The position numbers and the translations under genes were made by a program. Below, piece after piece: positions 11,868-48,186 of a DNA stretch of 64,000 bases. Each line of letters opens with the position of its first letter. Within the stretch, counting starts at the first letter, position 1. Source of the stretch: a virus. Below the pieces are notes generated by a model that worked only from the letters and a program-made list of their open reading frames with translations, did no database searches and had not been told where the DNA came from. The stretch covers positions 1 to 64,000 of IMG/VR virus record IMGVR_UViG_3300023106_000010. The stretch is one strand, 5' to 3'.

Positions 11868-11960
11868 GCCCACTTCCCATAGCTGGCCGATTGGGCTACC
11901 CTTGTAAGGTAGAATAAGTGTAAACTAACGTCGTGGGTTCAAATCCTACAGTGGGCACCA
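11868..11960 (+). tRNA. trnT: tRNA-Thr(UGU) with unusually long variable region
   Basis: GCCCACT/AGTGGGC acceptor, CTACC-CTTGTAA-GGTAG anticodon arm, GGTTCAAATCC T arm, encoded CCA. Confidence 0.8.
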
Positions 11961-11973
11961 AGTTATTACAGAA

Positions 11974-12214
11974 CGTGTCGGAACTTATCTTTCAGAACGG
12001 GTTAGCCAGCAACGTACACAACGCTACGGACGACTGGAGACTAGTGACTATATCTAGCGAGGGGCTGATAACCCCGGATATAGTTTAAGCCCTAGTATCT
12101 GTATCTAGGCACCATAAAGAAATGAAGGGACGCCTTCTAAAGTCTTCGGAGTGCAAACCTCTGGCCTACAGCAGTTCGTCTGTCTGTAGCTGTTAAGTTT
12201 GACACGGAGCACCA
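11974..12214 (+). ncRNA. unidentified ~240-nt structured RNA (RNA-A)
   Basis: At least 8 nested helices closed by CGTGTCGGAACTTA/TAAGTTTGACACG; ends in ACCA. Confidence 0.65.
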
Positions 12215-12219
12215 ATTGT

Positions 12220-12500
12220 ATTGAAGTAGTATTTAGCAGGAGCGATGTGGGAAGCAGACACATTAATCAGGGAAACGAGACTTCGTTCGGTGAGACCGCG
12301 TAACGATATTGTCTAGCGAAATAGCGGGATTGGATACTCTCTGAGGAGGCCAGAAATGGTGTTACCCCTATGACAGTGGATACGGTTAGGTTGGAAGTCC
12401 AAGCCATTGACTAGACGGAAGGGTAAAACGAGGCGTCGTCACACGCCTATTGTTCCTTTGCTAGAGTAGCGCCTAGCCTCCTGCTAAATACTACTTCAAT
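12220..12500 (+). ncRNA. unidentified ~280-nt structured RNA (RNA-B)
   Basis: Perfect 23-bp terminal inverted repeat, internal hairpins with GNRA loops, predicted pseudoknot. Confidence 0.7.
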
Positions 12501-12507
12501 TTTCAAA

Positions 12508-12583
12508 GCGGGATTAGCTCAGTTGGTAGAGCGATATCTTTCCAAGTTATAGGTCGTCGGTTCGAAGCCGTCATCCCGCTCCA
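12508..12583 (+). tRNA. trnG: tRNA-Gly(UCC)
   Basis: GCGGGAT/ATCCCGC acceptor, AGTTGGTA D loop, TTTCCAA anticodon loop, GGTTCGAAGCC, TCCA end. Confidence 0.93.
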
Positions 12584-28300: not shown

Positions 28301-31300
28301 GCTTCTTTGCCGGGATTAGCAGCCCAACTCGAAAAGCTGAAACGCTTTGCAATGGCTGATGACGCTTCCACAGGTGATAAGAAAGCCTACGAAGAGGCGT
28401 TGTCTCAGCAGACTTCTTTGGCTGAGAAATATAAGACAATGTGGACAGGTGTGGGTAAGTCTATCTCAGACTCCTTGGGAGACGCCTTCGGTAAATCTGG
28501 TAAAGCTGCTGGAGACATACTTCAGTCGATTGTCAAATACAATAATACCGATAACAAGTCAATCGAAGCTAAGAACAAACTCTACGGAAGCATGGCTGGT
28601 GCAGCTAAGAACTTCTTCAAAGAAGGCTCTACAGGTTACAAGGTCATGGCTGCTGCTGAGAAAGTGTTCCGTGCTATCGAGTTGGCGAACATGATTAAGT
28701 CGTTGTTTGTGCACGAAGCTATAACTACCGCAAAAGTAACTGGAACTGCTATTGGTCAAGTGGCTGAAACTTCTGAAGTTATTGCCGGTGAAGCTGCTCG
28801 TAACACCGCCAAAGTTCCGGGAGTGTTTATGTCGTTCATGAGTGCACTTGGTCCATGGGGCGCTGCTGCGGCTGCTGTAGCTATTGCTGCTGTGCTGGGT
28901 GGCGCTTTCAGTGGAGGAGGCGGAGGTGGTATGTCTGCTGCTGAACGTCAAGCTAAACAAGGTACAGGTTCTGTACTGGGCGATGATTCAGCTAAAAGCG
29001 AAAGCATTGCTAAATCCTTGGAATTGATTCAACGTGACTCAGGCTTAGGCTTGGTACACTTCAAGTCAATGGATACTTCGCTGAAAGCTGTTGTTGCAGG
29101 ACTTGGCAGCTTGGGGGCATCGATTGTTCAATTCGGTGGCGTCAATGATGTATCGAAACAAATCGCAGAAGGCCAATCTAGCGGATTCTTTAGTAAGCTT
29201 GCTACTTCTATTTTCGGTGGCAAAACCACTGTGCAAGATAGCGGTATTTCGTTTGGTGCAGGTACTGTTGGTAGCATAGGTACCAGTGGTGTTAACGCAC
29301 AATCCTACAACGATATTAAGAAATCTGGTGGATGGTTTAGTAGTGACAAGTATCGCACAGAAACTAAAGATTTAGGGTCAGATATTAGTGGTAAGTTTTC
29401 TGACATTATTAGTAACATGGCTAAAACAATCACTGCTGCGGCTGACATGATTGGTATCGGTGGATCAGCTTTCAATGAACATCTGAAATCCTTTGTAGTC
29501 GATCTGGGTAAAATCTCCCTGAAAGATTTAAAAGGTGATGAAGTTACTGATGCACTGAATGCTATCTTCTCTAAACTTGGCGACGACATGGCAATGTTTG
29601 CTGTGGATGGCCTAAAGAACTTCCAGAAGATTGGTGAAGGTTATCTCGAAACTCTGTCACGAGTTGCTAATGAACTGATTCAGGTGCAAGATGTGTTTGC
29701 TGTACTTGGCAAGTCTATGACTTCTACAGGCTTGGCGGCGATTCAATCCTCGCAAAACTTTATTGATTTGTTCGGTAGTATTGATAAGCTGACAGAAGCT
29801 ACAAGTTATTTTGTTGAGAACTTTTTGACAGATGCTGATAAGTTGAAACCTATCCAAGAATCACTGACCAAAGAGATGAATCGTTTAGGTTTGTCGTCAA
29901 TTGACACTGTAGAAGAGTTCAAGAACCTCGTGCTTGCACAAGACTTGAATACTAAAGCTGGTCAAGAGATGTATGCAAACTTGATGAATGTCGCTCCTGC
30001 ATTCTTGGCTGTTTCAGAGGCATCAACTAAAGCAGCAGAAGCAATAGCTGACCTCGCTAACAAGCGTCTGGACATGCTCTTGACAATTGCTGAATTGGAA
30101 GGTAATTCCGCCGCAGCTACATCCATAATTGCTCAGCAACGTTCTATTGAATTAGCTGCAATGGACGCCTCACTTCGCCCTCTGCAAGAACGTATCAATT
30201 TCTTGAACGACGAAAAAGCTGCCACCGAAAAGTCTAACTCTTTACGAGACAAAACATTGTCGTTGAGTCTAACTCTGGCAAACTTGGAAGGTAATACTGC
30301 TGCGGCTACTGCTATTGTAGCACAACAGAGACTGATTGAGTTGGCAGCTATGGACGCTTCTCTGCGACCTATCCAAGAGCGCATTAACTTATTGACAGAT
30401 GAGAAAGCAGCAGCTACAGCAGCGGCAGATGCCATTAAGAAGAATATTGATGCTTTGAAAACCACTGCTCAGAATGACTTTAATGTTCTGAGTAAAGCAC
30501 TCACCAAAGCAAAGAATGATGCTCAGGTTGCGTACGATGCTCAAGCAGCTATTATTAATGCTCAAATTAGTTCTCTGGAAACTGTGCGCAATGGTATTAC
30601 TGAGTTGAGTAATGCGTTGGATAGTACTCTGGACTCTATGCTGGACAATGCTGCTCTTGCAATGACTCGTGCTCAAGCTCAAGCGAAGTTGGATGAAGCT
30701 CTTAAAACTGCACGTACCACTGGTAAGCTCCCTTCCGCAGCAGACTTAAAAGATACGTTGGCAACTCTTGCGAAAGACCCAGCAGACTCGTTTAGCTCTT
30801 ATGCAGATTACATTAAGGATGTTGGTATTACAGCAGGTAAAGTTTCTAACTTAGCGGATATAGCTAAAGGTCAAGAGACAGCGGTGGATAAACAAATTGC
30901 TTTAGCTCAGAAGCAACTGGATGTCGCTAAAGATACTCTTGACAAAGAAATGGCTAAGTATGACATGTTGCTGGCTTTTGAACAGCAGCAGCTTGACGCG
31001 ATGAATGGTACGACAGTTGCTGTGCAAAATTTGACAGCGGCTTTGGTTAATTTCAATTCATCTGTACTGGCTGCTACAGCCGCTCAAGCTGGTCAGACAG
31101 GTTCTAATGGGAAGCCAATTACTTCTGTGAGAGCAACTGAAGATGACATTAAGAACCTGTACAAAAATGTGCTGGGTCGGGAAGGTGATGCTGGTGGGCT
31201 GGAGTATTACAAGAAACTTGCTAGCGAGGGCTACACAGCATCCCAGTTGTCTCAGTTTTTTATGCAGTCTCCTGAGTATCTGGCTAAGCATCCTGACGGT

Positions 31301-31590: not shown

Positions 31591-31617
31591 GGAAGGGCTT
31601 CGGCCCTTCTCTTTTTA
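31591..31617 (+). terminator. intrinsic terminator after the tape measure gene
   Basis: GAAGGGC-TTCG-GCCCTTC then TCTTTTT. Confidence 0.85.
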
Positions 31618-31626
31618 GGAGAATAC

Positions 31627-34014
31627 ATGGACGTAATCGTTCCAACTAAATTAGCAGCGAGTGTTTTTACAAGAGCCTCTATTGCCTCTTTTTATAATAG
31701 CACTGCTGTCTTGTCGTATGCTGCTGTAAACGTCCCTCGGGCAAACTATGACCCTACTAATCTCAGTAACCAACCTACTCCTCTTTTTGAGAGCAATACT
31801 ACTAACCTAACTCCTTACCCAGAAAACTTCTTGTTTGGCGGGGATGCTAGTGGAGTAGCAACAAGTGTAAACAATGCCACTTGCGAATATAATTGCAGCG
31901 TGGCCCCGGATGGTAGATTCTTCGCAGATAAGCTAGTAGAGACTGCAAGCAATACAGTACACGGCGCGCTTATGGGGGGGTTTTCCGCAGGTGTGAATAC
32001 GACTTACTCGGTATTTGTCAAAGCTGGAGAGCGAACTAAGTTTCGTTGGGATGCTGTACCAACAGGCGGTTCTGGTATTACAGACTCGTGGGTATTTGAT
32101 CTGGTCGCAGCAACAGTCACAAGGTCAACGACAGGTGCTACAACAGCTATTATTACGCCTGTAGGTAACGGTTGGTATCGTTGCTCGATGAGCGGAGCAT
32201 CAGCTTTGATCGATGCTACTAATTTTAATATGATGTCTGGCACGAATGTAATTTACACAGGTAACAGAACTTCTGGGATGTACTTGTGGGGCTTTCAGGC
32301 TGAAACTGGTTTGGTGCCCACGAGTTATATTCCACCTACTTACACTTTCACCAGCCGTGCTGGTACTACTGCCACTTATATTAATTCGGCAGGAAACATT
32401 ACCTCGGCAGCAGCTAACGTTGCGAGGATGCATTATATCGCAGATAATTTGAGCTTAGCTCCGCGACTATTATTTGAACCTGCTGCGACTAATTTGTGTT
32501 TGCAGAGTTCTGCGTTTAATACCTCCCCTTGGGTTGCACAAGCCGGCCTAACAATAACTGCAAACTCAACGATTGCACCTGATGGGACAGCCGTAGCTGA
32601 AACCATTACAGACCCTTCCGCAGTTGCTAATGCTTACGTAGGGCAAGACATCACAGTTGCTAACAACAGTGCAGGTTACGTACTTTCGGTTTTTGTTTTG
32701 AAAACAGTAGGAGCAACAACGTTCCCTTGTCTGGAGTTGGCTTTAGGTGGAGGTAGCCCTCAGATTGCAGGAGGTGTTGTTATTGACACTAATGCTGGGG
32801 CTATCCAGAGATATGGGACAAGCACGTCAGTCGTATACGGGCGAGTAGATTCTTGTAAAGACTATTGGAGAATAAGTGTCGGTATTTACAATAATAATGC
32901 AGGAAACACTGTGGCATCTTGTAAGGTTTATCCCGCTGTAAACACAAACGGCTCGACTACTTTTAATGTAGCAACAACAGGCTCGGCAATTATCTGGGGT
33001 GCTCAACTAGAAACTACTAACACAGGCTTCGGAACATTCGGAACAGCTAACCTGACACGTACATCCTACATCGCTACAACCACAGTCGCTGTAACTCGTA
33101 ATGCTGACATTATATCAGCTACAGCAACAGATCGTGCAGCAGATACTGTGGACGCACAAGGTATGTATTACACGAACATTCCTGAGAATGATTTCCCTGT
33201 GTGGAGTGGAGCTACAACTTACGGCATTGATGTATCTGGTAGCAATTCAGTAATCTACAAACACGTAAAGTATGCATCACTACAAGCGTCCAACACCAAC
33301 CACCAACCAGATATCAGCCCTACATGGTGGTCTGTTATAGGCTCCACAAATGCTTATGCGTTAATCGATACACAAGTTGGTACGCAAACTTCCACTAACT
33401 CTGGCAATCACATTCTGAGTTATTTCACAGGTCCAACTCAATCTAGCATTAGCTTGATTAATGTCTCAGCAGATTATATCACGGTAAAGGTATTTTCAGG
33501 TGGTGTGCAAATGTACACTAACACTGTGGATTTTACTGGAGGTTCTTCAGGAGTACCAATTACAGATTACACTATTACAGGACTTACCCCATATATTAAT
33601 GGTGTTATATCTCTGGACGTGTATGCTGATAACATCAAACCAGCTATTGGTAACTTCGTAGTAGGTACTAAATACTACTTAGGTTCAACTGAGACATCCC
33701 CAACAATTGGTATTGTTGACTACTCTGTCAAGACAATTGACGCATTTGGTAATCCTACACTTACAAAGCGTGGTTATGCCAAGAGAATGAATACTAAGCA
33801 ACTGATGGACGATTCTACTGTCGATACTGTTGCAAGGCTTATGTCGCAGATTCGGGCTACTCCTTGTGTGTGGAATGCTAACACAACAATGAGAAATCTC
33901 ACAAGTAATGCCAAGACATCTTTGATTGTCTATGGGTATTATAAGGATTGGGAAATTAGTGTTGATTATAAGTCTATTAGCTATTTGACGTGTAGTATTG
34001 AGGGACTTATCTAA
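31627..34014 (+). CDS. tail tip/distal tail protein with two inserted beta-rich, carbohydrate-binding-like modules
   Basis: Short N-terminal and long C-terminal tail-protein segments (IVDYSVKTIDAFGN...IEGLI) flank two FT(S)RA...E..TNL...WGxQxE..TSYI repeats. Confidence 0.7.
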   Translation: MDVIVPTKLAASVFTRASIASFYNSTAVLSYAAVNVPRANYDPTNLSNQPTPLFESNTTNLTPYPENFLFGGDASGVATSVNNATCEYNCSVAPDGRFFADKLVETASNTVHGALMGGFSAGVNTTYSVFVKAGERTKFRWDAVPTGGSGITDSWVFDLVAATVTRSTTGATTAIITPVGNGWYRCSMSGASALIDATNFNMMSGTNVIYTGNRTSGMYLWGFQAETGLVPTSYIPPTYTFTSRAGTTATYINSAGNITSAAANVARMHYIADNLSLAPRLLFEPAATNLCLQSSAFNTSPWVAQAGLTITANSTIAPDGTAVAETITDPSAVANAYVGQDITVANNSAGYVLSVFVLKTVGATTFPCLELALGGGSPQIAGGVVIDTNAGAIQRYGTSTSVVYGRVDSCKDYWRISVGIYNNNAGNTVASCKVYPAVNTNGSTTFNVATTGSAIIWGAQLETTNTGFGTFGTANLTRTSYIATTTVAVTRNADIISATATDRAADTVDAQGMYYTNIPENDFPVWSGATTYGIDVSGSNSVIYKHVKYASLQASNTNHQPDISPTWWSVIGSTNAYALIDTQVGTQTSTNSGNHILSYFTGPTQSSISLINVSADYITVKVFSGGVQMYTNTVDFTGGSSGVPITDYTITGLTPYINGVISLDVYADNIKPAIGNFVVGTKYYLGSTETSPTIGIVDYSVKTIDAFGNPTLTKRGYAKRMNTKQLMDDSTVDTVARLMSQIRATPCVWNANTTMRNLTSNAKTSLIVYGYYKDWEISVDYKSISYLTCSIEGLI

Positions 34015-34050
34015 ATGTATTTTAACGTAGCACTCTTGAAAGGGAATATT

Positions 34051-34125
34051 ATGAACACTGCTCCACGTATGACAGGAGGAGGAACCCCACCACCTCCGCC
34101 TCCTCCAAAGCCTTCTAACAAATGA
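34051..34125 (+). CDS. poly-proline micro-ORF MNTAPRMTGGGTPPPPPPPKPSNK (24 aa)
   Basis: AAAGGGAA RBS-like sequence; seven Pro codons with varied third positions; stop overlaps the next start (ATGA); in-frame upstream ATG at 34015. Confidence 0.6.
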   Translation: MNTAPRMTGGGTPPPPPPPKPSNK

Positions 34126-34520
34126 TATACCTAGCCCTATTCATTCTCGCAATATGGTGTAGTAGGGCTAACCAAGGTGCTATGTGGATGACAGTGGTAA
34201 TTGGAATAAGCTGGTCAGCACATTATCCCTTGAGCTTGATGACAGACAGAAGTGCATGGTTCATGATTGTGTTCTTTGTAGACATGTTTATCATCTACGC
34301 AGCCATTGCTGTCTGGCGTCAATCTTCGTTACCAATCATAGGACTGTCCTTCATGCTATGTGTTGGACATCTTATTGATTGGCGGTACGAGACAGACCCT
34401 GTGTACTACCAGATTGCGAATTATTTAGAATACTTAGAGATTATCAGTTGTATAATCTTTTCACCAGTTGTACTAGATTTTATTAAACAAAGGATTAGAT
34501 ATGCCTTCAGGGGAATTTAG
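34122..34520 (+). CDS. multi-pass membrane protein of unknown function
   Basis: About 4-5 hydrophobic segments, basic C-terminus. Confidence 0.7.
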   Translation: MIYLALFILAIWCSRANQGAMWMTVVIGISWSAHYPLSLMTDRSAWFMIVFFVDMFIIYAAIAVWRQSSLPIIGLSFMLCVGHLIDWRYETDPVYYQIANYLEYLEIISCIIFSPVVLDFIKQRIRYAFRGI

Positions 34521-34863
34521 CTGGATGTTGTCAGGAGCTTTATTCCTCTTGACAATCTTATTCGGAACGGTCTGGTATTTTATCAGGTCCGAGGTTCAAA
34601 GCCTTAAAGATGCCGATGAACACAACAATGACAGGTTCCTCAAAATCGAATCTAAACTTGAAAAAGGATTAAGCGAGATGAGGGAAGAAGCGAAGCACAT
34701 GGTGGAGAAATCCCAGCAACGTGCAGATAGAGACATTGAACTGCTCCGCTCTGACATGCGCGACCAAATGGCACAAATGCGTGAAGCCTTGCGCAGTACG
34801 GAACAGAATATTCTGAACCAACTTAATTTGTTGTTCAGAGCCAATAACATCGGCAGCAATTAG
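34501..34863 (+). CDS. single-TM plus coiled-coil protein (holin/antiholin-like)
   Basis: N-terminal TM then charged coiled coil; just before the endolysin. Confidence 0.55.
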   Translation: MPSGEFSWMLSGALFLLTILFGTVWYFIRSEVQSLKDADEHNNDRFLKIESKLEKGLSEMREEAKHMVEKSQQRADRDIELLRSDMRDQMAQMREALRSTEQNILNQLNLLFRANNIGSN

Positions 34864-34965
34864 TAATACACAAGCCCACGTAAGATTTATCTTAAAAGAT
34901 GGGCATTACAACTATCTCGTGCGTTGTGCACGCGTAAGTTTATTAGTCTACCAAAGGAAAATATT

Positions 34966-35526
34966 ATGAACAAAGAAGAATTGATTGCAACAGCAACACG
35001 TATTGCTAAGAAGTTTATCCGCCCTACCGAAGAACTCTCCCTTGTAGCTTATCCGGACCCTTACAGCGCATTGGGTAAAGCTCTTGAGAACAACCTGAAA
35101 TCTCGTGCGTATCGTGACGGTAAGTTTGTCATTCCGAAAGAATGGGAGAAGCTATCACCTGAACCAGTAACTATAGGGTACGGAGCTACCTTCAAAGGAC
35201 TCAAGCTTGGCACTGTATGGGCGCTAGAACAGGCTGAGAGCGATTTGGATCAACAAGTGAGGGTTCGCATTGAGCAAGTTCTCAAAGCCGCTCCTACGCT
35301 GCTCAAACGCTCACCTGAGAAGCTTGCTGCGTGCGTATCGCTTCAGTTCAATATCGGGCAGTCAGCCTTCGAAGAATCCACTCTGGTGAAGCTGCTGAAT
35401 AAAGAGGACATGGTAGGTGCTGCTGAACAGTTCCCTCGTTGGAATAAAGTTAAAGGGCAAGTATCAAATGGCCTGACCAATCGTCGCAAGGCTGAGCGAG
35501 ATTTGTTTATCTCTGTGAAGGGGTAA
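34966..35526 (+). CDS. endolysin, GH24 (T4-type) lysozyme
   Basis: E..L.AYPD...TIGYG, FNIG, F.RWNK..G.V..GL..RR.AE. Confidence 0.92.
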   Translation: MNKEELIATATRIAKKFIRPTEELSLVAYPDPYSALGKALENNLKSRAYRDGKFVIPKEWEKLSPEPVTIGYGATFKGLKLGTVWALEQAESDLDQQVRVRIEQVLKAAPTLLKRSPEKLAACVSLQFNIGQSAFEESTLVKLLNKEDMVGAAEQFPRWNKVKGQVSNGLTNRRKAERDLFISVKG

Positions 35527-35528
35527 TT

Positions 35529-35798
35529 ATGAAGTGGGCTACCATTAAGCGTTGGACGCTCGATATCTTCACTGAGGAGGATGGCCTCACAATTGACCCT
35601 GTACGTGCAGGGGCTGTAGGAGGTTCCTTCTACGGCTTTGTGTGCCACGCGTATCAAACCTTCTGGCAGCACGTACAATTTGACATGCTATCCTTCTCAG
35701 GGGGCTTGGCAGCTATTCTAGGCGTGCTTGGCATGTACCTGAAGACTAATAAGAAGCATGTGTCAGAAGCTCCTAAAGAGGAGAACGGTAATGTTTAA
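35529..35798 (+). CDS. probable holin (2 TM)
   Basis: Two hydrophobic segments and a charged C-tail, between endolysin and spanins. Confidence 0.6.
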   Translation: MKWATIKRWTLDIFTEEDGLTIDPVRAGAVGGSFYGFVCHAYQTFWQHVQFDMLSFSGGLAAILGVLGMYLKTNKKHVSEAPKEENGNV

Positions 35799-36168
35799 TC
35801 TCATTGGATGGCAAGCTAAGCTAGCTGAATACTTGATTGTGATTGCTGTGCTGTGTGGAGTATTTTATGGAGTTTACCACAAAGGTGGTGAGGATGCTCG
35901 TTCAGAGATTGCAGAAGAACAAGCTAAAGCAGACAAGGCACAACAAGATAAGTACAATCTTGTTTCCCAGAAGTATGAGGATTTGAAGAATACGAGGCAA
36001 CAGAATGTCAACACCATCACCAAGGAAATTACTCACATTATTGATAAGCCTATTTATAATGTGCAGTGTATCGATGACTCAGGTAGGATGCTCATCAACG
36101 ATGCCCTCGCGGGACGTGCAGCTACCAAGCAATCTGGTACAACCGTGCAAGCCACTCCAAAGCCTTGA
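35791..36168 (+). CDS. i-spanin (Rz-like)
   Basis: N-terminal TM, coiled coil, KPIYNVQCIDDSG. Confidence 0.8.
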   Translation: MFNLIGWQAKLAEYLIVIAVLCGVFYGVYHKGGEDARSEIAEEQAKADKAQQDKYNLVSQKYEDLKNTRQQNVNTITKEITHIIDKPIYNVQCIDDSGRMLINDALAGRAATKQSGTTVQATPKP

Positions 36169-36283
36169 GGGAACAACTGGAGCGGACTTGACACGTAATA
36201 TTATCGCCAACTCTCAGATTTACTGGGAGTGTGCTGACAGCAAGCAAGCGCTGATTGATGCTGTTACAACAAAGAACAAGTAG
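36005..36283 (+). CDS. o-spanin (Rz1-like lipoprotein), overlapping the i-spanin
   Basis: Signal peptide ending VG-CSS; LPSNLVQPC..L; Y.EC. Confidence 0.75.
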   Translation: MSTPSPRKLLTLLISLFIMCSVSMTQVGCSSTMPSRDVQLPSNLVQPCKPLQSLEGTTGADLTRNIIANSQIYWECADSKQALIDAVTTKNK

Positions 36284-36329: not shown

Positions 36330-36950
36330 TCACAGGACGTGGGCTTTTTGTTGCCCATGATCTTCAGTATATCCAGCACCAAAACTATTCTGTAAAGATA
36401 TCATCTTTTCCCTGTAACTCACGGCCAGATCGAAAGCTGTCTGATATCCATAAGTCAGAATTCTGAAGGACTTAGATACTCTTCGCCCAAGCTTGACACA
36501 GTGCCAACTAGCTCTCCAATAAAGATACCCTCGGAGATTAGCTAGCATGACGCCATTATGACCAGAAGTATTTCTAGGATTTATTGTTCTGTTGCGGGAA
36601 TTAATTGCATTCTCGACGCAGCGAAGATTCTGAATAGAGTTGTTCTTTTTGTTTCTGTCTATGTGGTCTATCTGAAAACTTGGAGATATCGGGCCATTTA
36701 CTAGTTGCCAGATAATTCGGTGGACTTTATATACTTTATAATTTATACCGACAACAAAATACCCAGCCTTTTCTACACTACCTGCCACATCTCCCGGAGA
36801 GCATAAAACCCTCCCTACTCCCTTACCGCCCCTGCGCTCCACCTTCCATCGCAAACAACTTGGGGAGGTTTCGTCGTAATAGAAATATTTATTAAATTCT
36901 TCTTCCAAACTAATCTCCAACAATAAAAGCCCCTTTCGGGGCAGTTGCAA
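36330..36950 (-). CDS. HNH homing endonuclease with AP2-like C-terminus
   Basis: HRIIW...IDHIDRNKKNN.I.NLR; paralog of 50891-51661; true start uncertain. Confidence 0.85.
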   Translation of the reverse strand: MQLPRKGLLLLEISLEEEFNKYFYYDETSPSCLRWKVERRGGKGVGRVLCSPGDVAGSVEKAGYFVVGINYKVYKVHRIIWQLVNGPISPSFQIDHIDRNKKNNSIQNLRCVENAINSRNRTINPRNTSGHNGVMLANLRGYLYWRASWHCVKLGRRVSKSFRILTYGYQTAFDLAVSYREKMISLQNSFGAGYTEDHGQQKAHVL

Positions 36951-48109: not shown

Positions 48110-48186
48110 TGGAACCACCGGAGGAAATCGAATCCCCTTAAAGTCCGTGTAGAAAACGGATGCATAGTCCAGTCTGCCACGGTGGT
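48110..48186 (-). tRNA. trnR: tRNA-Arg(UCU)
   Basis: Reverse complement: ACCACCG/CGGTGGT acceptor, TCCGT-TTTCTAC-ACGGA anticodon arm, GGGGA-TTCGATT-TCCTC T arm, TCCA. Confidence 0.85.

Follow-up and report, generated by a model that had tools for sequence, protein, structure and literature searches.

What does a run of seven consecutive proline codons do in a reading frame of only 24 codons, set directly before a membrane-protein gene at the head of a phage lysis cassette? The question is raised by a micro-ORF (a very short open reading frame, ORF) in IMG/VR virus record IMGVR_UViG_3300023106_000010, which spans 86,910 bp at 42% GC and whose first 64 kb (64,000 nucleotides) form the stretch analysed here, called the window. 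We propose that the micro-ORF is a genuine small gene, that it makes up a unit with the downstream membrane-protein gene and that it may act as a coupler and throttle on that gene's translation, a reading to which we give a probability of roughly 0.45, a little under even odds. That the micro-ORF is real, translated and coupled to the membrane gene is a narrower claim, and one that we hold to be very probable. Judged by sequence comparison, the module of micro-gene and membrane gene is real, conserved and previously undescribed, and the seven-proline run (Pro7) is a lineage-specific feature of it.

A proline-rich micro-ORF and the start of its membrane-protein gene

The module lies on the plus strand and comprises the following features (aa, amino acids; nt, nucleotides).

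34015-34050, plus strand: spacer, or optional 12-codon N-terminal extension, in which an in-frame ATG at 34015 would give a 36-aa form
34039-34056, plus strand: start region of the micro-ORF (AAAGGG, AATATT, ATG, AAC)
34051-34125, plus strand: micro-ORF, 24 codons and TGA (ATG 34051-34053, TGA 34123-34125), product MNTAPRMTGGGTPPPPPPPKPSNK
34122-34520, plus strand: 132-aa all-helical membrane protein, whose start lacks a Shine-Dalgarno (SD) sequence and overlaps the micro-ORF stop (ATGA)
34501-34863, plus strand: 120-aa protein with an N-terminal transmembrane (TM) helix and a long coiled coil (CC), sharing a 20-nt overlap with the 132-aa gene

The earlier note on this DNA, made from the letters alone, had called an ORF at 34051-34125 with seven varied proline codons, a stop that overlaps the start of a 132-aa multi-TM protein, and an overlap between that gene and a coiled-coil gene with one TM helix. 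Direct reading of the open frame bears these points out: the coordinates are as claimed, the codons CCA CCA CCT CCG CCT CCT CCA stand at 34087-34107, ATG 34122 of the 132-aa ORF lies inside the micro-ORF stop, and the two membrane genes overlap by 20 nt. Proline makes up 9 of the 24 residues, as against 3.0% across the long ORFs of the same genome (binomial P = 2e-8), and apart from the Pro7 tract the 86,910-bp genome has no stretch of at least five CCN codons.

The two starts differ sharply in their predicted ability to recruit ribosomes. The micro-ORF has an SD-like AAAGGG with an anti-SD duplex of -5.3 kcal/mol, and the 12 nt of AATATTATGAAC (34045-34056) are identical to the start region of the endolysin gene at 34960-34971. 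The 132-aa start, by comparison, has a duplex of -0.1 kcal/mol, against -5.3 to -8.0 kcal/mol for the micro-ORF and neighbouring genes. Conservation nevertheless marks ATG 34122 as the true translation start: M1, L6, A10 and R15 are invariant in the 10 close sequences, and the first helix together with N14 of an NR motif is kept across the 41 aligned members of the family described below. The same anatomy recurs at other loci, where the micro-ORF stop overlaps or abuts the downstream start: in L001, a near-identical locus (ATGA, as in the window), in L241, a distant one (TAA-ATG), and in a contig from an aquatic metagenome (TAATG). The TM gene has no SD in the window and weak pairing in L241, and both micro-ORFs have a normal one; the longest SD match at the TM-gene start is 3 nt in the window and in L241 alike. 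Seven of nine other starts tested score -5.3 to -8.3 kcal/mol, the exceptions being the 89-aa gene of L241 (-0.1 kcal/mol) and the TM genes themselves.

These features suggest a model in which ribosomes would start on the micro-ORF at an ordinary SD and ATG, and the 132-aa gene would be translated mainly by ribosomes that finish the micro-ORF and then restart, because the gene lacks its own ribosome-binding site and begins within the micro-ORF stop. The proline-rich stretch, expanded in this phage to seven consecutive prolines, would slow translation, because proline serves poorly both as peptidyl donor and as peptidyl acceptor, and three or more in a row stall ribosomes in the absence of elongation factor P (EF-P) activity (PMC4176338). 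A slow stretch of this kind may serve as a throttle or delay on the number of ribosomes that reach the membrane gene, and a ribosome paused at the last proline codons would cover ATG 34122, 15 nt downstream. The lysis cassette would then begin with two accessory membrane proteins, of 132 aa and 120 aa, whose most plausible role is in lysis timing; we favour this role because both membrane genes head the lysis genes in both phages. A throttled 132-aa protein would probably be one that is harmful if overproduced from a strongly expressed late operon. We infer, in sum, that translation is coupled, that the prolines slow it and that the module affects lysis.

Two other routes from the surrounding frames into the membrane gene find little room. 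A -1 slip within the proline tract would terminate at TAA 34116-34118, 3 nt 5' of ATG 34122, which excludes a frameshift fusion of the micro-ORF into the 132-aa frame. The upstream tail-fibre gene is in the same frame as the micro-ORF, and ATG 34015 follows its stop TAA (34012-34014) directly; read-through from that stop is unlikely, because three in-frame stops separate the fibre gene from the micro-ORF in L241.

Relatives of the module and of its membrane protein

The 132-aa protein belongs to a family of about 80 sequence clusters found only in uncultivated phages. It has nine close homologues at 44-99% identity, and a profile search returned 82 cluster representatives at E <= 1e-3, 38 of them at E <= 1e-10, nearly all of about 130 aa. 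We aligned the window protein with 40 of these hits (41 sequences), leaving out the short or fragmentary P0029, P0031, P0046 and P0053, the 874-aa P0033, and everything ranked below P0057. One residue, Y95, never varies in this alignment, and four more (N14, P36, H83 and E103) vary hardly at all. An AF2 model of the protein has a pLDDT of 87.9 and six helices. The protein matches no Pfam, PHROG, PADLOC or NCBIfam family; taken with its 41 aligned relatives it hits 0 PHROG families and, in Pfam, only scattered single entries at E > 0.007. No entry of PDB or BFVD reached E <= 0.001 in structure searches with the model; the top BFVD rows are phage proteins without a name (TM-scores 0.53-0.69), and matches in the ESM Atlas are confined to unnamed viral clusters. 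Where sizes are recorded, the long contigs that carry family members measure 77-92 kb, the same size class as this phage.

The most informative relative is L241, the match of family member P0028, which comes from a complete, terminally repeated phage genome of 77,271 bp. Its identity to the window is low throughout (tape measure 27%, fibre 27-31%, TM protein 28%, coiled-coil protein 29%, 89-aa protein 25%), and its endolysin is unrelated; its gene order runs from two fibre genes through a 39-codon ORF, a 141-aa TM gene and an overlapping CC gene to the endolysin, the 89-aa gene, Rz and Rz1. Between the fibre gene and the short ORF lie 33 nt of spacer that contain three in-frame stops.

5881-6000 of L241: micro-ORF of 39 codons with SD TAAGGA (-6.2 kcal/mol), product MKLTLDTGGGHIPTGHAPVLPVEPPVKPLKPEDLENTED

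The TAA of this micro-ORF abuts the ATG of the TM gene, whose own SD is weak (-3.3 kcal/mol), and the CC gene ends 24 nt before the endolysin. The L241 peptide carries TGGG, a proline-rich stretch (7 prolines in 39 residues; P = 1.6e-4 at the proline frequency of the window genome) and then PPVKP, so that TGGG and a PP(x)KP end are common to both peptides: TGGG...PPKP in the window and TGGG...PPVKP in L241. The TGGG codons differ only synonymously, ACA GGA GGA GGA in the window and ACA GGT GGC GGT in L241. The earlier note had asked whether a short GGG..P(n) ORF is kept directly upstream of homologues of the 132-aa protein. One is present in this distant homologue and in near-identical L001, but the proline run is missing from L241.

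L001, a leaf-litter variant, is 99% identical to the window, with an identical micro-ORF and the ATGA kept, and such close identity makes it uninformative about conservation of the micro-ORF. It does differ beyond the module, where a 202-aa HNH-endonuclease-like ORF (L001 2714-3322) lies between the CC gene and the endolysin, at the position of the window's gap 34864-34965. This looks like a homing-endonuclease insertion with a co-converted flank, the adjacent CC gene being 62% identical to that of the window. The three-part module of micro-ORF, TM gene and CC gene is thus found together at three loci, two of them independent.

Sequencing-read contigs add fragments. Near-identical DNA occurs in two leaf-litter metagenome runs, either of them a possible source of the record, and diverged relatives in one aquatic run, whose contigs were aligned at 80% likeness or more. 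A 344-nt aquatic contig aligns from 34121, and the ten unlike letters before that point read AAA CCT AAG TAA-TG (K-P-K-stop), placing a stop in the micro-ORF frame that again overlaps the TM-gene ATG (TAATG); this loose end was assigned to the contig by arithmetic (114 + 170 + 50 + 10 = 344). A second aquatic contig keeps 34039-34076, that is, the start region and first codons, but not 33958-34038, and its alignment ends where the Gly/Pro tract begins. Though the material is thin, these contigs fit a conserved 24-codon form with a variable Gly/Pro tract.

Searches for further relatives at the DNA level yielded little. Scans of viral contigs for DNA of 132-aa homologues with queries A1, A3 and P0096 found nothing, as did scans of genome contigs with A1 and A3, and a metagenome scan found only near-identical L001. 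Searches by tblastn against cultured phages with the window protein, P0022 and P0049, and against plasmids with P0008, gave no match; the 120-aa protein searched in phages and IMG/VR gave nothing, and blastn of DNA 33900-34900 against phages gave no match. We rejected Limnohabitans phage DC31 as a relative, since it has only a fibre domain in common and no synteny, and relatives of the endolysin (L003-L006) were too distant. Pattern searches of IMG/VR for P6-K-P gave 81 matches in 80 loci, among at least 116 stretches, 31 of them in complete frames of 70 codons or fewer; among the matches listed, none has both a start and a coupled multi-TM gene. The pattern of P7, 3-18 nt and ATGA gave at least 80 matches; among those listed, 74 are out of frame, and the 6 that are in frame all lack a following ORF of more than 17 codons. 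These small samples of exact patterns only say that the exact Pro7-coupled form is not common in IMG/VR.

Several observations weigh against the proposal that the micro-ORF couples and throttles the membrane gene. Stop/start overlaps are common among ordinary phage genes and by themselves are no proof of regulation. An SD match of at least 4 nt precedes 125 of 169 ORF-based gene models, as against a background of 23% at all ATG triplets, but gene starts in that count were picked to maximise the SD match and the genome background is inflated as a result. Within the 132-aa ORF, AAGGTG at 34173-34190 precedes Met21 and Met23, and could allow some independent initiation of a protein without the first helix. 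The membrane-gene trio adjoins the fibre gene (TAA-ATG) and is set off from the endolysin by a 102-nt gap. The comparison at the DNA level comes down to two independent loci, the window and L241, with near-identical L001 and the contig fragments beside them. The L241 peptide has a single PP and no proline run, which means that a strong stall is not conserved. Finally, the similarity of the two peptides appears to be mostly compositional, since their local alignment score is reached by 124 of 2000 shuffles that preserve composition. Because of this last result, what is conserved is position, coupling, composition and two short motifs, and not a long alignable sequence.

Competing explanations and the surrounding lysis region

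The peptide could itself be the functional product: a small proline-rich protein of the cytoplasm, with the 132-aa and 120-aa proteins, or something else, as the partner that it binds or regulates. Coupling would then serve to ensure co-expression. We think this unlikely, though it deserves serious weight: TGGG, the proline-rich stretch and PP(x)KP are kept where the neighbouring protein is only 28% identical, the codon differences in TGGG are synonymous, and a pure relay ORF would need no particular sequence. The same comparison shows, however, that length (24 against 39 aa), charge (+3 in the window peptide, acidic in L241) and proline spacing are not conserved, and that the alignment is not significant beyond composition (the 124 of 2000 shuffles noted above); neither membrane protein matches a known polyproline-helix binding domain. 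A predicted complex of the 132-aa, 120-aa and 36-aa chains scored 0.01 (mark 0.32), a value that counts neither way.

The earlier note had also read the varied wobble positions of the proline codons as a sign of selection on the peptide. This argument fails on two counts: the tract is strand-symmetric, since it becomes G7 on the minus strand with third positions that vary equally and with a mirror ORF opposite the micro-ORF, and it is the reverse complement of glycine codons belonging to the tape-measure gene.

A different doubt concerns the function rather than the coupling. The membrane proteins may have nothing to do with lysis and may instead act in superinfection exclusion or in relation to the receptor, tied to the fibre gene, with the micro-ORF as their coupler. 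The surrounding genes bear on this; they follow a 2072-aa tape-measure gene, after which come the fibre gene and the micro-ORF.

31627-34014, plus strand: tail fibre / tail protein (795 aa); phrog_5939, E = 5e-55, and phrog_6278; 27-31% identical to the L241 fibre
34864-34965, plus strand: 102-nt gap with a weak hairpin at 34919-34935; site of the HNH gene insertion in L001
34966-35526, plus strand: endolysin (phage lysozyme); PF00959, E = 9e-27; phrog_7
35529-35798, plus strand: 89-aa protein with two hydrophobic stretches and a charged tail; holin candidate by position
35791-36168, plus strand: Rz-like i-spanin; phrog_1152, E = 6e-17; SD AGGAG before 35791, alternative start 35758
36005-36283, plus strand: Rz1/LysC-like o-spanin overlapping the end of Rz; PF23793 LysC at 25.2 bits (cut-off 27); phrog_2425 and phrog_456

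The cor and llp genes adjoin receptor-binding genes in T1- and T5-like phages, and the trio here is likewise joined to a fibre gene (TAA-ATG), with a 102-nt hairpin gap before the endolysin that took a homing-endonuclease insertion in L001 and with no family link to any holin or antiholin. In L241, on the other hand, the CC gene lies 24 nt from the endolysin and the micro-ORF, with its own SD, 33 nt from the fibre gene; the trio stays with the lysis genes though the endolysin type differs. Nor does the 132-aa protein match any defence or exclusion model, and the 120-aa protein does so only weakly (LeoB/LeoBC, E 0.004-0.009). We rate a role outside lysis as distinctly unlikely.

The lysis assignment has its own gradations. 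The complete endolysin, holin, Rz and Rz1 set described in the earlier note stands for the endolysin, Rz and Rz1, which are identified by family matches (the Pfam score of Rz1 falling below its cut-off), and less so for the holin, which is assigned by position and hydrophobicity only. The 89-aa protein has no family match in Pfam, PHROGs or further profile searches; its gene has the same place and length in L241, where the product is 25% identical (E = 0.03). None of the 132-aa, 120-aa and 89-aa proteins matches a known holin, antiholin or lysis-regulator family above threshold in Pfam or PHROGs. In both the window and L241, nonetheless, the pair of 132-aa and 120-aa genes immediately precedes the endolysin, the holin-like gene, Rz and Rz1. 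For the 120-aa protein, family matches are sub-threshold only (phrog_736, E = 7e-5, with no stretch passing alone); its homologues lie on 85-86-kb contigs, and it is 29% identical to L241 6396-6752 and 62% identical to the L001 version. P0108, 77% identical to it, carries a JGI label as an ElaB/YqjD/DUF883 ribosome-binding protein, which looks unreliable and which we reject, because 0 of 7 homologues match DUF883 at a Pfam E <= 1; proteins of that kind moreover have a C-terminal membrane anchor, whereas the TM helix of the 120-aa protein is N-terminal.

A stricter version of the slowing effect, put forward as the first of two models in the earlier note, would make Pro7 a sensor of EF-P activity or of prolyl-tRNA supply, possibly with Rho-dependent polarity on the lysis cassette at stalls. 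It draws on the seven proline codons placed 15 nt before an SD-less, overlapped start and on the C-rich, G-poor RNA at 34056-34163 (C minus G up to 21 in 78 nt). Polyproline mRNAs with Rho sites are expressed at much lower levels when EF-P is lost (PMC5021804), and mgtA and mgtB are under EF-P control through proline codons (PMC6460261, PMC5299641). Of this model the short proline-rich ORF, coupled to a membrane gene by its anatomy, survives. Its poly-proline stall site is not shared with L241, whose peptide has no run but a lone PP, and we find no alternative structure or terminator: region 33995-34150 folds no better than its shuffles (z = 0.14; 111 of 200 equal), terminator-like and promoter-like sites occur only at the shuffle rate, with no terminator-like site in or after the micro-ORF, and Rfam gives no match in the micro-ORF region. 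The C-rich bubble, though it ranks in the first four windows across the 36-kb block of plus-strand genes, is not distinctive as a Rho-loading signal, being largely a by-product of CCN codons. We rate the strict sensor low because the run is not conserved and there is no attenuator structure or terminator; and because a consecutive poly-proline run is absent from L241, EF-P sensing is unlikely to be the conserved mechanism of the family, although it may operate in this particular phage. Equally improbable in our view is a dedicated translation-speed gate, in which a lysis-timing complex would depend entirely on ribosomes completing the proline-rich peptide and the host's capacity to translate proline would set when, or whether, lysis occurs.

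The tract also has features at the nucleotide level that might make the open frame incidental.

28912-28930, strand not assigned: inverted-repeat partner arm, Gly6 codons (T GGA GGA GGC GGA GGT GGT) in the tape-measure gene
34089-34107, strand not assigned: inverted-repeat arm in the proline codons, a perfect 19-nt reverse complement of 28912-28930
34076-34107, plus strand: 8-bp local hairpin in which GGAGGAGG (Gly3 codons, SD-like) pairs with CCTCCTCC (last proline codons), spanning Pro7 at 34087-34107

On this account the tract would be a nucleic-acid element or a relic, either an inverted copy of the Gly6 patch or a hairpin, and not a gene. The two arms of the inverted repeat lie 5158 nt apart (P ~4e-4 under genome codon usage), the three glycine codons are all GGA (P = 0.009 by codon usage), the mirror ORF lies on the minus strand, and the chance of a 36-codon open frame is estimated at roughly 0.1 at this composition. 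We nevertheless consider it very unlikely. In L241 an ORF of the same composition occupies the corresponding position behind a strong SD, yet neither the hairpin, GGG there being coded GGT GGC GGT, nor any counterpart of the 19-nt inverted repeat is present; the 132-aa gene has no other means of recruiting ribosomes; the micro-ORF start region is identical to that of the endolysin; and the inverted repeat may explain where Pro7 came from without making the ORF unreal. The hairpin appears in minimum-free-energy folds, in a region that, as noted, folds no better than shuffles. Because none of these nucleotide features is present in L241, we read them as lineage-specific. The inverted repeat could be a copied patch or a site of long-range RNA pairing in the late transcript; that it records the origin of the Pro7 run is speculation.

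The weakest candidate is the second model of the earlier note, an extracellular signal peptide that the 132-aa protein would sense in order to adjust lysis, which would make the pair the Gram-negative equivalent of peptide communication between phages: a small peptide gene does adjoin a multi-pass membrane-protein gene, but we find this barely credible, since MNTAPRMTGGGTPPPPPPPKPSNK on inspection has no signal peptide or other export signal, hydrophobic stretch, double-glycine leader or Cys, its length and net charge (+3 here, acidic in L241) are not kept and its sequence is too poorly conserved for a ligand-receptor pair, and the cassette holds no transporter or protease gene.

Other observations were made around these genes. 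At 31591-31610, in the interval from the tape-measure gene to the fibre gene, a GC hairpin and T run resemble a terminator and may lower transcription into the block of fibre gene, micro-ORF and lysis genes. Inside the tape-measure gene, GGAGGTGGT at 28921-28933 is followed by an in-frame ATG (Met after GGGGGG) and resembles a strong internal ribosome-binding site; an internal start there could give a C-terminal tape-measure fragment. Directly after Rz1, a 206-aa minus-strand ORF (36330-36950) shows HNH-like motifs by eye and may be a mobile endonuclease between the lysis cassette and the ribonucleotide-reductase genes. The phage encodes tRNA-Thr(UGU), tRNA-Gly(UCC) and tRNA-Arg(UCU), within 11868-12583 and 48110-48186; tRNA-Gly(UCC) reads GGA, the codon used three times in the micro-ORF, and just upstream of it lies an inverted repeat of about 20 nt (exact 16-mers, ~12220-12241 and 12478-12500). 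The ends of the record repeat each other, 1-126 and 86765-86890 being exact over 126 nt and followed by one mismatch and further identity. Because its ends repeat, the record is probably a complete, terminally redundant or circularly permuted genome, though IMG/VR classes it as linear.

Known systems and the meaning of the module

The nearest documented parallels to a proline-codon micro-ORF are mgtL and mgtP (and the mgtQ upstream ORF) of the Salmonella mgtA and mgtCBR operons, which are likewise very short ORFs with proline codons directly before membrane-protein genes, and for which EF-P dependence is documented (PMC6460261, PMC5299641, PMC8092293). They act, however, through alternative RNA stem-loops, by transcription attenuation or by unmasking of a ribosome-binding site, whereas the micro-ORF has no such structure and is linked to its gene by a stop/start overlap; they sit in 5' leaders, whereas the micro-ORF lies in a phage late operon, and there is no sequence relationship. 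Taken as an mgtL-type sensing element, the proline codons keep their richness (9/24 and 7/39) but not the run (Pro7 against one PP), across the two independent loci.

Reinitiation offers a second comparison. The lysis gene L of phage MS2 depends on ribosomes that terminate in the coat gene. Like the 132-aa gene, whose coupling we infer from sequence, it encodes a membrane protein of the lysis region with no ribosome entry of its own, expressed via upstream termination, and its dependence keeps the level of L low and tied to upstream translation. The differences are that MS2 is an RNA phage whose upstream frame is a major structural gene, whereas here the upstream frame is a dedicated proline-rich ORF of 24-39 codons and the downstream protein is no established lysis effector. 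By analogy, the arrangement appears closer in logic to reinitiation at MS2 L than to mgtL and mgtP.

LysA of phage P2, LydB of P1, and RI and RIII of T4 are accessory membrane proteins that act in lysis timing. The 132-aa and 120-aa proteins are like them in being small membrane proteins in or at a lysis cassette, beyond holin, endolysin and spanins; the likeness is positional only, with no sequence or profile similarity, and we know of no coupled proline-rich micro-ORF before any of these genes. The o-spanins of the lambda Rz1 type, small proline-rich outer-membrane lipoproteins with a signal sequence and a lipobox Cys, show that a tiny proline-rich product can belong to a lysis cassette, but the micro-ORF product has neither signal sequence nor Cys, and a separate Rz1/LysC-like gene, unlike the micro-ORF, is already present at 36005-36283. 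Arbitrium AimP and double-glycine pheromones have an export leader and a processing site, both of which MNTAPRMTGGGTPPPPPPPKPSNK lacks, and no AimR-like or transporter gene lies near the micro-ORF. Our literature searches found no paper that describes a proline-rich micro-ORF in a phage lysis cassette; in the accessible part of 10.1101/511675, 'proline-rich' is used only for the antibiotic Onc112.

Lysis timing is a central trait of phage fitness, yet most accessory genes of lysis cassettes are uncharacterised. The module described here brings together a micro-gene, a membrane protein of five to six helices from a family unnamed in Pfam, PHROGs, PADLOC or NCBIfam, and a membrane-anchored coiled coil. 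It illustrates that annotation pipelines miss functional ORFs of 24-39 codons, and that a conspicuous poly-proline run can be a lineage-specific elaboration and not a conserved feature. Were the gate described above to operate, Pro7 would be the far end of the range of a tunable device that occurs throughout a lineage of uncultivated 77-92-kb phages. If, as we propose, the micro-ORF sets the supply of ribosomes to the membrane gene, it would be a compact, natural and dedicated coupler ORF in a DNA phage, and its Pro7 form could link the translation state of the host to lysis.

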